Virus record (IMG/VR): IMGVR_UViG_3300012936_000004
Location: 25,415-89,414 of that record
DNA length: 64,000 nucleotides
From: a virus
Reading direction: 5' to 3' (one strand)
Every line of letters starts with the position of its first letter. Position 1 is the first letter of the stretch. Below, in pieces: positions 40,316 to 44,815 of the stretch. A program made the position numbers and the translations under genes. The notes below the pieces were generated by a model. That model ran no database searches, was not told the DNA's origin, and was given only the letters and a program-made list of their open reading frames with translations.

Positions 40316-40336
40316 GATGTATCCTGAAAATAATAT

Positions 40337-40488
40337 GTGTGGGGAGGGTTAGGATCCTCCAATGAGCCACTGCCAGTACTACCTGTGCTATCCTGGACTC
40401 ATACATGCCTGCATCTGCTAAGACGAACCGCTAAGTTCCTTTGGCATTACCTTAGCCCCATACTGTAAGGGCTTATTCAGTCACCACG
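40337..40488 (-). ncRNA. manA-like RNA motif (tRNA-cluster-associated phage ncRNA)
   Basis: GUGGUGACUGAAUAA...UAAGGUAAUG...CAGGC...GUAGUA...AACCCUCCC matches recalled manA consensus blocks; sits at the end of the tRNA operon. Confidence 0.6.
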
Positions 40489-40515
40489 ATCCATGACCCG
40501 TCGGTCTGGAAATTC

Positions 40516-40605
40516 TGGCGGACAGTCAGGGATTCGAACCCTGGGAAGGCGTTAACCTTCGTCGGTTTAGTAGACCGGTGCTTTAAACCTCTCAGCCAAC
40601 TGTCC
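40516..40605 (-). tRNA. tRNA-Ser with unusual anticodon ACU
   Basis: GGACAGU acceptor, loop CU-ACU-AA, long variable arm, G73, encoded CCA. Confidence 0.9.
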
Positions 40606-40917: not shown

Positions 40918-41002
40918 TGGCACAGGTGGCGAGATTCGAACTCGCTCAGCTTACGCACTGGTTTTGGAGACCAGCATACCTCTCCAACTGTATCGCACCT
41001 GC
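40918..41002 (-). tRNA. tRNA-Trp(CCA) with enlarged variable arm
   Basis: loop CU-CCA-AA; 12-nt variable region UGCGUAAGCUGA; G73, CCA. Confidence 0.85.
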
Positions 41003-41009
41003 ATTATTA

Positions 41010-41084
41010 TGGTAGCCCGTAGGGGAATCGAACCCCTCTTTCAAGGTTGAAAACCTTGCGTCCTAACCGATAGACGAACGGGCC
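41010..41084 (-). tRNA. tRNA-Glu(UUC)
   Basis: loop UU-UUC-AA, standard cloverleaf, CCA. Confidence 0.93.
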
Positions 41085-42944: not shown

Positions 42945-42985
42945 AGAAAAGAATCCTGCACTTTCAATAGTTTGTAATTTTTTTT
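42945..42985 (-). repeat. degenerate copy 3 of the early-promoter upstream element
   Basis: agaaaagaa...ctttcaatagtttgtaatttttttt. Confidence 0.7.
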
Positions 42986-43298
42986 AGTAATAATCACCAT
43001 AACCAGCACCTGGACCGGCACTGTAGTAAGGATTATTATAGTTTGGATCATCCATACCGTCAACGGCAGTAACTTCAGGTACATAATGCTTGAGCATATT
43101 TTCTACACCCATTTTTAGTGTCATACTACTACTAGCACAGCCTGAACATCCTCCTTGTAATAGCACTAATACACGACCAGATTCTACATCAAAGTCTTGT
43201 AATTCGATCATACCACCATGTCCTGCAACTGCGGGGTTAATGTTTTCCTCGATAATAGTGCTTATTTGTTCAATGATTTCTTCTTTTGTACGTTCCAT
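42984..43298 (-). CDS. NifU C-terminal (NfuA-like) Fe-S carrier
   Basis: INPAVAGHGG.IEL, L.GGCSGC.SS..TLK.GVE; true start MERTKEE. Confidence 0.9.
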   Translation of the reverse strand: MERTKEEIIEQISTIIEENINPAVAGHGGMIELQDFDVESGRVLVLLQGGCSGCASSSMTLKMGVENMLKHYVPEVTAVDGMDDPNYNNPYYSAGPGAGYGDYY

Positions 43299-43312: not shown

Positions 43313-43414
43313 TGGCTCTGGGGGGAGGATTCGAACCTCCACGGTAAATATATTGCAGTATATTAAACCACACGATAAACAGTCGTGCGTGTCTACCATT
43401 TCCACCACCCCAGA
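43313..43414 (-). tRNA. atypical tRNA-Asn(GUU), 102 nt, with 30-nt variable arm and Leu-type D arm
   Basis: UCUGGGG/CCCCAGA acceptor, G73, CCA; anticodon arm CACGA-CUGUUUA-UCGUG; T arm GGAGG-UUCGAAU-CCUCC. Confidence 0.85.
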
Positions 43415-43422
43415 ATATTGGG

Positions 43423-44265
43423 TTAAGCCGCTATGGCTAACTCTTGTTTTTTATCTAATGCCGCAATCATACGTGTCATACCAATGCCACCGCCAACTCT
43501 TTGGAAGAAGTCAAACTCTAAGAACTTTTCTAGTTCTGCTTCTACTCTATCTTTACCAAATAGTTTGTAAAGTAGTTCAGCATATTCTCCGTCTACAATG
43601 CTATGAAATGTATCACGCATCATATCTACATCACAACTACGTTCTGCTGATCCTATAGTTTCCATGCCTCCTAATATAACATCCATCTTCTTGGCAGTTA
43701 TACCATCGTCATTTCTACTCATATTCCAGAACGGACTTGTCATTTCAGGAAAGTTTGTTATTAATGTTGAACCAAAACGTTCAAACATTTTAGTTTCATG
43801 GGTAGCATCCATTTCAATATTTTTGCCTATTTGAAAATGATCTTGCCATTCTGCATAAGTCTTTTCTGTAAGCGGATCAAAGCCTAAGTATTCACATAGT
43901 TCATACTCCATTGCTTTTAGATCATCTACACTACCTGGCATTTCAAATTCGAACATTGGAAATATTATATCGTGTCTGCCTGGAATAGCATTAGGCTCTT
44001 GTCTATAAGACGTTGACACACAAAAAAAGCCCTTCGAATCGGGCTTAGTAAGTAATTCATGTTCTAACCACATCTGTCCCGTTTGCGGTAGAGGCCATAC
44101 TTCGCCTGCATAATTGTATGTTGCTACATTGAACGGATCTTCACATGCGGCTAAGATACTTAAACGGTTTTGAGTATGTACTTCTTCAAATCCTTTGTCC
44201 AAAAAAAAGGACCTCAAAAGGCCTACTGTGTGTGTAAATTTTGTTGGTGATATTAATTGCGTCAT
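43423..44265 (-). CDS. class IIb aminoacyl-tRNA synthetase catalytic domain only (AsnRS-like)
   Basis: motif 1 RSFF..KGF.EV, LPQTGQMWLE, motif 2 YRQE...GRH..FPMFEFE, ETIGSAER, motif 3 GGGIGMTR; no N-terminal OB fold. Confidence 0.88.
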   Translation of the reverse strand: MTQLISPTKFTHTVGLLRSFFLDKGFEEVHTQNRLSILAACEDPFNVATYNYAGEVWPLPQTGQMWLEHELLTKPDSKGFFCVSTSYRQEPNAIPGRHDIIFPMFEFEMPGSVDDLKAMEYELCEYLGFDPLTEKTYAEWQDHFQIGKNIEMDATHETKMFERFGSTLITNFPEMTSPFWNMSRNDDGITAKKMDVILGGMETIGSAERSCDVDMMRDTFHSIVDGEYAELLYKLFGKDRVEAELEKFLEFDFFQRVGGGIGMTRMIAALDKKQELAIAA

Positions 44266-44392: not shown

Positions 44393-44815
44393 TTATAACT
44401 TTTTAATTCTATTTGTATGACGTCCGCCTTCAAACTCTGTGTTGAGAAATGTTTCAACAATATTAGTTATCCAAGATGGATCTGTTACTCTTGCTCCTAA
44501 GCATAATATATTTGCGTTATTATGTTTTCTAGTAAGCATTGCTGTCTGTGTATCTTTACAGAGTCCTGCTCGTATTGTTGAATAACGGTTAGCCGCTATA
44601 CTCATACCAATTCCTGTACCGCAAACAAGAATGCCAAAGTCAGCACTTGTATCGGATACCAAACTACATACATGTTTAGCGAAATCCGGATAATCACAAC
44701 TATCTTCACTATAACAACCACAGTCTACAATGATATGTTTTTGATCTTTTAACCAATCTACTATTGCTTGTTTTATTTTGTAACCTCCATGGTCACTTGC
44801 TATTGCTATATTCAT
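44393..44815 (-). CDS. rpiB: ribose-5-phosphate isomerase B
   Basis: SDHGG, DYPD, CGTGIG, HNNAN, FEGGRH. Confidence 0.96.
   Translation of the reverse strand: MNIAIASDHGGYKIKQAIVDWLKDQKHIIVDCGCYSEDSCDYPDFAKHVCSLVSDTSADFGILVCGTGIGMSIAANRYSTIRAGLCKDTQTAMLTRKHNNANILCLGARVTDPSWITNIVETFLNTEFEGGRHTNRIKKL

Follow-up and report, generated by a model that had tools for sequence, protein, structure and literature searches.

Truncated paralogues of aminoacyl-tRNA synthetases such as HisZ, EpmA/PoxA and GluQRS have been reused outside the ordinary charging of tRNA, and one of them, GluQRS, a truncated paralogue of glutamyl-tRNA synthetase (GluRS), still acts on a single tRNA by loading glutamate on queuosine-34 of tRNA-Asp. 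The archaeal asparagine synthetase AS-AR (3P8T, 1NNH) and bacterial AsnA likewise consist of a class IIb-derived core that has lost its anticodon domain, and they work without tRNA. We know of no member of the HisZ, EpmA/PoxA and GluQRS group that is welded to its own tRNA gene, nor, to our knowledge, has any tRNA-Asn with an extra arm been described. Both features meet in a 64,000-nucleotide (nt) stretch, hereafter the window, of the viral record IMGVR_UViG_3300012936_000004, which is itself an 89-kb fragment. Here a 280-amino-acid (aa) enzyme derived from asparaginyl-tRNA synthetase (AsnRS), which we call X (43423–44265), is followed after a spacer of 8 nt (43415–43422) by the gene for a 102-nt tRNA with the anticodon GUU (43313–43414), all on the minus strand. 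The enzyme belongs to a new family of truncated synthetase paralogues and is accompanied here by a captive tRNA. Because its relatives in cells and giant viruses lie beside, or are fused to, enzymes of pyrimidine synthesis, the two together probably form an enzyme-and-tRNA module rather than just a charging system of the phage's own.

X is a class IIb catalytic core and nothing more. The Pfam profile PF00152 (tRNA-synt_2) matches it at 56.1 bits (E = 4e-15), and since residues 14–274 cover profile positions 29–296 of 308, the protein begins at the catalytic core. Class II motifs 1–3 are intact in an alignment with labelled AsnRS, aspartyl-tRNA synthetase (AspRS) and lysyl-tRNA synthetase; these references, together with one AS-AR-like protein (L193), were drawn from cellular genomes and carry NCBIfam labels. 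The OB-fold anticodon domain PF01336 is absent from X, from all 12 longer homologues discussed below and from five phage records, including the complete genomes of P-SSM2 and P-SSM7. A synthetase split between X and a separate OB-fold protein is ruled out by its absence from these five records. The first-pass annotation, which described the 280-aa open reading frame (ORF) as a class II core without an OB fold, therefore holds.

NCBIfam models give only weak, partial matches to X, for asnS, archaeal asparagine synthetase A and aspS, and all fall far under their cut-offs (asnS models TIGR00457, 29.3 bits vs 342.6, and NF003037, 27.7 vs 414; asparagine synthetase A model NF005055, 26.5 vs 389). 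Against solved structures, a profile of the family finds AsnRS best (2xti, E = 2.6e-15; 8tc7, 1.2e-13), followed by archaeal-type AspRS (3nel, 5.5e-13), archaeal asparagine synthetase (3p8t, 1.4e-6) and PoxA (3g1z, 6.6e-5), with no match to Escherichia coli AsnA at E = 0.01. The motifs QTGQMWLE and FPMFEFE align with SGQLxAE and E-x-E of AsnRS, whereas AspRS has QSPQLYKQ and D-x-E. After QTGQ the X family has Leu-Glu, where AsnRS has Ala, Leu or Met and then Glu and AspRS has Lys-Gln; at the end of motif 2 the family has E-x-E, compared with D-x-E in AspRS. The initial description of these residues as Asn-type rather than Asp-type thus agrees with the alignment. The AS-AR-like reference also carries Leu-Glu and E-x-E, so the signature denotes an Asn-shaped pocket and is no proof of charging.

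Other features set the family apart: a motif-2 loop rich in proline (EPNPxPGRH), the segment PFWNM, a Lys two residues before a conserved Asp, PR before motif 3 where AsnRS has PH, and a distinctive C-terminal segment. X of the window displays the whole signature (ACEDP, PLPQTGQMxLE, EPNPxPGRH, FPMFEFE, PFWNM, KxDVIL, ETIGSAERS and PRxGGGIG) and matches phrog_29758 at 430.7 bits, a group whose function label in PHROGs reads "unknown". Canonical AsnRS (2XTI/2XGT, 8TC7, 5XIX, 1X54) is accordingly its best structure match, sharing core motifs 1–3, Leu-Glu after QxxQ and E-x-E, and X departs from it in lacking the OB fold, in scoring 29 bits against an asnS cut-off of 342.6, in its proline-rich loop, in forming a separate long-stem clade and in its link to pyrimidine genes. 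HisZ, EpmA/PoxA and GluQRS differ from X in their parent synthetase, PoxA being the weak match at 6.6e-5.

The captive tRNA scores 47.9 bits with the Rfam tRNA model (gathering threshold 29). Its 7-nt anticodon loop, CUGUUUA, places the anticodon GUU at 43378–43380 on the minus strand (43380 G, 43379 U, 43378 U), followed by U37 at 43377; ARAGORN detects the gene and miscalls it as tRNA-Asp(atc). The acceptor stem opens with U1-A72, the discriminator base is G73 and the CCA end is encoded (43313–43315). For AsnRS the identity elements are the anticodon and G73, and U1-A72 is an element for the GatCAB amidotransferase. The D arm is of tRNA-Leu type, and 18 of its 20 positions agree with the D arm of the tRNA-Leu(UAA) encoded in the window (counted by hand from the alignment). 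The extra, or variable, arm GGUUUAAUAUACUGCAAUAUAUUUACC (43343–43369, minus strand) folds into GGU/ACC and AAUAUA/UAUAUU stems around a CUGCAA loop. Its stems are those proposed at first sight; its length is 27 nt, not the 30 nt then given. The other details of the initial description (102 nt, GUU, U1-A72, G73, U37, the Leu-type D arm, the 8 nt after the stop codon and the 2.2 kb from the main tRNA cluster, which ends at 41084) were all confirmed.

Conservation of the tRNA was assessed in 78 copies, which amount to 50 distinct sequences, using an alignment fitted to a covariance model built from 26 copies. U1-A72, G73 and GUU are each invariant in all 50 distinct sequences, U33-G34-U35 is likewise invariant, and CCA is encoded in 48; U33, the 7-nt anticodon loop and a canonical elbow and T arm are kept. 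Base pairing holds in 99.7% of helix cells of the alignment, and 18 of the 24 pairs have changed on both sides, a figure reached in none of 500 shuffles, with slid controls far lower. These patterns indicate that the captive tRNA is real and selected for. Position 37 is freer (38 distinct sequences have U, nine have A and three have C). The extra arm is always a stem-loop, of 10–34 nt and with 37 distinct sequences; long arms keep GCAA and UAUUUA, and short arms, those of P-SSM2 and P-SSM7 included, have neither. Thus the captive tRNA resembles type II tRNAs (Leu, Ser, Tyr) in its extra stem-loop arm and Leu-like D arm, and resembles an ordinary phage tRNA-Asn (that of LR756508) in its anticodon loop, U1-A72 and G73. 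It differs from the ordinary tRNA-Asn in carrying an arm of 10–34 nt in place of a short variable loop and, mostly, a pyrimidine rather than a purine at position 37.

A second tRNA of the phage, tRNA-Trp(CCA) (40918–41002, minus strand, 85 nt), has about nine extra bases inserted in its variable region, where a short loop is usual; in related loci tRNA-Trp occurs either in the long form or in an ordinary form of 74 nt. The variability of the captive tRNA's arm and the existence of this long-arm tRNA-Trp argue against the earlier proposal that the long arm replaces the anticodon as identity element, and they leave the arm a poor candidate for sequence-specific recognition.

Close relatives of X were found in at least 595 IMG/VR stretches, the sampled close loci being 80–92% identical. 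X is also present at 65–67% identity in the Prochlorococcus phages P-SSM2, P-SSM5 and P-SSM7, where it is annotated as "tRNA ligase" and followed by an annotated tRNA-Asn of 85–88 nt. Downstream of X, a full-length match to the captive tRNA (at least 78 bits) is present both in the window and at 77 of the 85 related loci, a recurrence far beyond chance. The other eight comprise one locus whose end cuts the tRNA copy, one that ends at the gene and six without a tRNA, namely two huge phages and the loci L008, L065, L066 and L078. The reverse search started from the tRNA, with a pattern restricted to the 3' half of the D arm and the anticodon loop, and 80 of the 113 matching IMG/VR stretches were examined, a sample that shares some contigs with the enzyme-first one. 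X stands upstream on the same strand in all 78 testable loci (two were untestable). The spacer measures 8–29 nt in 74 of these, 50–149 nt in three and about 309 nt in one. The pair occurs in two phage lineages and in three different genomic contexts (the window's own, one following gp23 in P-SSM7 and one next to a lipase gene in P-SSM2) and therefore moves as a unit.

X itself is found without the tRNA. The whole records of the huge phages LR756501 and LR756508 hold no captive tRNA, only ordinary long-arm tRNAs for Leu, Ser and Pro and one ordinary tRNA-Asn far from X, and the tRNA was not found in 14 further viral X loci. Nor did it occur in 80 cellular X loci, where none of 41 ARAGORN tRNAs is a tRNA-Asn and the best covariance model score is 63.8 bits; a 55.8-bit match in one locus (L163) coincides with an ARAGORN tRNA-Leu. 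The dependence is one-way, of the tRNA on X and not the reverse. The idea of a dedicated enzyme/tRNA pair, put forward in the first-pass annotation, is thus upheld in so far as the two form a conserved unit in which the tRNA is never without X. It fails in so far as X is no phage invention for this tRNA, being present in at least 406 cellular loci, in giant viruses and in huge phages that lack it. Similarly, the predicted linkage of homologues to a covarying long-arm GUU tRNA is seen in the related phage loci (77 of 85, plus the cut copy) and not among the cellular and giant-virus homologues examined.

An exhaustive homologue search yielded 674 clusters (50% identity, E ≤ 0.001), mostly stand-alone proteins of 265–300 residues, and a search of the ESM Atlas returned only viral clusters of the family. 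Scanning one genome per prokaryote species gave 406 X loci. The 80 whose neighbourhoods were studied come from candidate phyla radiation (CPR) bacteria, DPANN archaea, Rickettsiales, Coxiellaceae, Dependentiae, Pasteurellaceae, Flavobacteriia, Saprospiraceae, Kapabacteria and others. A single family, at about 50% identity, thus spans cellular genomes, huge phages and giant viruses. In a quick maximum-likelihood tree, to be read with a long-branch warning, the family forms one clade (SH-aLRT 100) on a long stem, separate from the AS-AR-like reference. X of the window, of P-SSM2 and of P-SSM7 appear there as short branches inside the cellular members, near Saprospiraceae, Moheibacter and the homologues P0004 and P0005. 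Judged by this placement, phage X is an ordinary member of a wider family and not a synthetase trimmed for the captive tRNA. Canonical AsnRS is present in 13 of 30 X-bearing genomes and absent from 17; its presence in the 13 means that X is not simply the cell's AsnRS.

Some homologues, among them P0001 (360 aa) and P0137 (501 aa), have an N-terminal extension resembling an organelle-targeting sequence or a long acidic tail, which suggests that the family has eukaryotic members; in the tree, no non-phage sequence stands closer to the window protein than P0001. Another longer homologue, P0287, combines LAGLIDADG_3 (PF14528) with the synthetase core and may contain an intein or an inserted homing endonuclease.

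The family is linked to genes of pyrimidine synthesis. Among the longer homologues (E ≤ 1e-20, n = 12, 47–55% identity), ten carry the dihydroorotate dehydrogenase (DHODH) domain DHO_dh, nine of them with the synthetase domain annotated too; P0004 is a DHODH–X fusion, and P0022 joins X to OMPdecase. Neighbour clustering places an OMPdecase gene one or two ORFs downstream of X (upstream in a few) in 23 of the 80 cellular loci, spanning at least five lineages (Rickettsiales, Pasteurellaceae, Coxiellaceae, Saprospiraceae and Dependentiae), and a tblastn search with few references found PyrE, PyrF or DHODH within 2.3 kb of X in 18. In a giant-virus bin estimated to be complete (G253), X adjoins a single 765-aa frame (G253:C1, about 47.8–50.0 kb) with OMPdecase and DHODH matches and a PyrE-like N-terminal part, and pyrB was not found in that bin. 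The recurrent DHODH fusion points to X as the supplier of the DHODH substrate, and the presence of PyrE in X clusters means that X does not replace PyrE. A frame of 791–792 residues near X in a Dependentiae metagenome-assembled genome (MAG) likewise has OMPdecase and DHODH matches, with a pyrE match over the cut-off (L159 11624–13999; G024:C14).

At the level of whole genomes, 22 of the 30 X-bearing genomes have DHO_dh over the cut-off, 22 have OMPdecase and 12 have pyrE, with pyrE just below in five more. In the GTDB family of a Moheibacter MAG (G016), X occurs in 3 of 101 genomes, and pyrB is found in none of these three compared with nine of ten genomes without X (probability by hand 4/286 = 0.014, although the three may be close kin); pyrB is also missing from both other X-bearing Bacteroidota. 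Within the family of Phocoenobacter atlanticus (G004), all four X-bearing genomes have their sole pyrD beside X, and in G004 itself a second, divergent OMPdecase gene ends 5 nt from X. Two Pasteurellaceae regions (G004:C67:54512–57333 and G005:C50:41888–44680) show the same arrangement, with a divergent OMPdecase-like gene (87–90 bits, vs about 150 for the other copy) abutting X and the sole pyrD beside the pair; pyrE is under the cut-off in both genomes.

We propose that X, by virtue of its conserved ATP site and Asn-type site, forms Asn-adenylate as AsnRS would, and that it closes the activated asparagine with CO2 to dihydroorotate, which would feed DHODH. Dihydroorotate has the structure of asparagine with a single carbonyl linking the alpha-amino nitrogen to that of the side-chain amide. 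Two chemistries make ring closure by X plausible: CO2 converts aminoacyl adenylates to N-carboxyanhydrides, and TsaC, an enzyme of t6A synthesis, uses threonine, bicarbonate and ATP to form a carbamoyl-adenylate. The amide nitrogen would attack the carbamate carbonyl, giving dihydroorotate with release of the alpha-carboxylate. Such a route would bypass carbamoyl-phosphate synthetase, aspartate transcarbamylase and dihydroorotase. It would also make sense of the fusions to DHODH, of the Asn-type pocket, of the missing anticodon domain and of the polar residues peculiar to the family. We regard this enzyme part, taken alone (an AsnRS-derived enzyme of uridine monophosphate (UMP) synthesis that converts Asn, ATP and CO2 to dihydroorotate), as slightly more likely than not. 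In the phage, X would add to the pyrimidine supply during infection; because neither pyrD nor pyrF is encoded by the phage, its product would be passed to enzymes of the host. The neighbouring gene for ribose-5-phosphate isomerase B (RpiB; 44393–44815, minus strand; PF02502, 197.6 bits) fits a nucleotide theme, although the neighbours differ in other phages.

For the captive tRNA, we suggest a functional tRNA with a Leu-type body and the Asn identity set GUU, G73 and U1-A72 that depends on X and would itself take Asn from the Asn-adenylate on the enzyme. Class II synthetases approach tRNA from the extra-arm side, and the extra arm would be expected to hinder host AsnRS, which is why we envisage loading by X. 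The loaded tRNA would keep AAY codons read while X draws on asparagine. Loading by X is ranked slightly ahead of loading by the host and of mere neighbourhood because it is the simplest account of the one-way dependence and calls for no new chemistry on the side of the tRNA. The whole reading, an enzyme of UMP synthesis with a dependent tRNA that takes Asn from its adenylate, is nonetheless put forward as a tentative one. What the data establish is the anatomy, the joint inheritance, the one-way dependence, the membership of the family and its tie to pyr genes; substrate, chemistry and any passage of Asn to the tRNA are inferred. Our confidence stays low because position 37 is mostly a pyrimidine, because phage X is unchanged and very acidic, and because of the motif-2 loop and the loci with intact X and no tRNA.

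Several observations weigh against this proposal and are best considered together. With regard to transfer to a tRNA, four close phage loci have an intact X and no tRNA; the motif-2 loop EPNPxPGRH lacks the basic residues of AsnRS loops; phage X shows no phage-specific change; and it is the most acidic protein of the compared set (net charge −20). Net charge and isoelectric point do not distinguish the phage proteins from cellular X or from genuine synthetases. For a decoding tRNA, a pyrimidine at position 37 is unusual. Since the sampled loci are close relatives, the co-inheritance counts few independent events.

With regard to pyrimidine synthesis, pyrB is over the cut-off in 5 of the 30 X-bearing genomes, and pyrC of the multimeric type in the same five. 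In the family of G004 (n = 121), X is found in four genomes, pyrD in 115 and pyrB in none; pyrB is absent there with or without X, so that a late pathway without pyrB does not need X. At least six of the 30 genomes (G008, G011, G014, G025, G028 and G031) have no convincing pyrD, pyrE or pyrF, though these MAGs may be incomplete. CPR bacteria keep X in a block with Dus, DnaX, seryl-tRNA synthetase and DprA and not with pyr genes. Among viruses, DHO_dh (pyrD) and OMPdecase (pyrF) were found neither in the record of the window nor in P-SSM2 or P-SSM7, and, of the 14 further viral X loci, the 13 other than the giant-virus bin showed no pyr gene within 4 kb (tblastn with few pyr references). carB was found in 2 of the 30 genomes and is missing even where pyrB is present, a blank that is unreliable given the long query and strict E limit. 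The evidence on whether X replaces the early pyrimidine steps is therefore mixed, and X is not confined to genomes that lack the early enzymes.

The strongest alternative is that X is a minimal true AsnRS whose sole task is to charge the long-arm tRNA, forming a private and possibly orthogonal pair with the arm or the acceptor end as handle. The Asn-type site and intact motifs are what such an enzyme would need, and the tRNA, never found without X, has the invariant GUU, the encoded CCA and the canonical elbow and T arm of a translational molecule; moreover, 17 of the 30 X-bearing cells have no canonical AsnRS. Yet members of the family, at about 50% identity, occur where there is no such tRNA (in cells, huge phages and giant viruses), the family shows fusions to and clusters with pyrimidine enzymes, and X coexists with canonical AsnRS in the other 13 genomes. 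The four close phage loci with X alone, the variation of the arm in length and sequence, and the pyrimidine at position 37 in 41 of the 50 distinct copies point the same way. A purely translational orthogonal pair is thus possible but less likely, and we consider it unlikely overall.

More doubtful again is a tRNA-linked pyrimidine route, in which X makes dihydroorotate and the captive tRNA(GUU) is a dedicated carrier or acceptor of activated Asn. Host enzymes would charge the tRNA, and X would take the activated Asn off its 3' end for the pyrimidine precursor, reversing the transfer step, so that the tRNA would act as a metabolic cofactor outside translation. On this view the constancy of anticodon, discriminator and first pair makes sense even though X lacks an anticodon domain; position 37 would be at liberty to be a pyrimidine, the tRNA would have no use without X, and cells would require no special tRNA. 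The scheme is an inference, however, for whose reaction we found no precedent in the literature, and the tRNA retains features that make it ready for the ribosome (U33, a 7-nt loop and a canonical T arm).

We assign a similarly small chance to the absence of any direct interaction, in which X would be metabolic and the tRNA an ordinary, host-charged decoding tRNA-Asn, the two being adjacent by descent as one cassette. The close kinship of the sampled loci (80–92% identity) suits this view, as does an Asn content of 5.75% of window codons. The long-arm tRNA-Trp of the same phage suggests that long arms may be a lineage habit, and phage tRNAs often lie beside mobile cassettes, according to a passage of PMC3037559. 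On the other hand, a spacing of 8–29 nt kept over three genome contexts and two phage lineages, and a tRNA that is never alone in 78 of 78 testable loci, weigh against it.

That X is a tRNA-independent asparagine synthetase like AS-AR, coupled with a tRNA-Asn as an Asn-supply module, seems improbable. The architecture is the same, a core without an anticodon domain; the NCBIfam asparagine synthetase A model matches weakly at 26.5 bits; and the AS-AR-like reference shares Leu-Glu and E-x-E. That score stands against a cut-off of 389, however, and X forms a separate clade from the AS-AR-like reference. Its partners, in contrast to those of AS-AR and AsnA, are pyrD, pyrE, pyrF and, in phages, a tRNA, and the recurrent DHODH and OMPdecase fusions would be left unexplained. 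Modification of the captive tRNA by X in the manner of GluQRS is very improbable: X is indeed a truncated synthetase paralogue beside a tRNA with a GUN anticodon and invariant U33-G34-U35, but the pyrimidine link would go unexplained.

A full-text literature search found no paper on the X–tRNA pair, on an AsnRS-like pyrimidine enzyme or on a tRNA-Asn with an extra arm, though supplementary tables, which lay outside the search, may list the gene. Passages of Sullivan et al. 2010 (PMC3037559) list the gene as "tRNA ligase" (T4-GC194) in two phage columns without analysis, and passages of PMC7824862 and PMC3532385 add nothing on the family. If X makes dihydroorotate from Asn, pyrimidine synthesis would have a previously undescribed entry, in use among reduced symbionts, CPR bacteria, DPANN archaea, giant viruses and highly abundant phages of the ocean, and predictions of auxotrophy from genomes would have to change. 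If X charges the tRNA, the two would make up a naturally occurring synthetase/tRNA pair blind to the anticodon, which would interest genetic-code engineering. If X makes dihydroorotate and the tRNA carries Asn for it, the tRNA would belong to a new first stage of UMP synthesis, and no virus was previously known to keep a tRNA for the sake of a metabolic enzyme. Under either reading it is unusual for a tRNA gene to occur solely behind one particular enzyme gene. The pair is present in P-SSM2 and P-SSM7, for which the sequence records give a Prochlorococcus strain as host, and this may allow a direct test; interest is high because either outcome, a new pyrimidine entry or an anticodon-blind pair, is directly testable in phages with a cultured host strain.

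The source of the window is, by its UvsX, a T4-related marine jumbo phage: that protein is closest (64–67% identity) to those of T4-related jumbo phages of proteobacteria, among them Vibrio phage 2.275.O, Atu_ph07, CBB and GAP32. RpiB, X, the captive tRNA and a NifU-like gene that starts 14 nt past the tRNA (42984–43298, minus strand; PF01106, 86.6 bits) all lie on the same strand. The two flanking genes serve here as context only, and the gene upstream of X is not constant, being RpiB in the window and others in other phages. A promoter scan gave nothing above chance, and one "terminator" call is the anticodon stem of the tRNA itself. Beside the main tRNA cluster lies a match to the manA RNA motif (40333–40510, minus strand) of 39.3 bits, below its gathering threshold of 55.2. 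A tRNA-Ser of the window (40516–40605, minus strand) is called with the anticodon ACU in the loop CUACUAA; A34 is unusual in a serine tRNA, the anticodon GCU being commoner.

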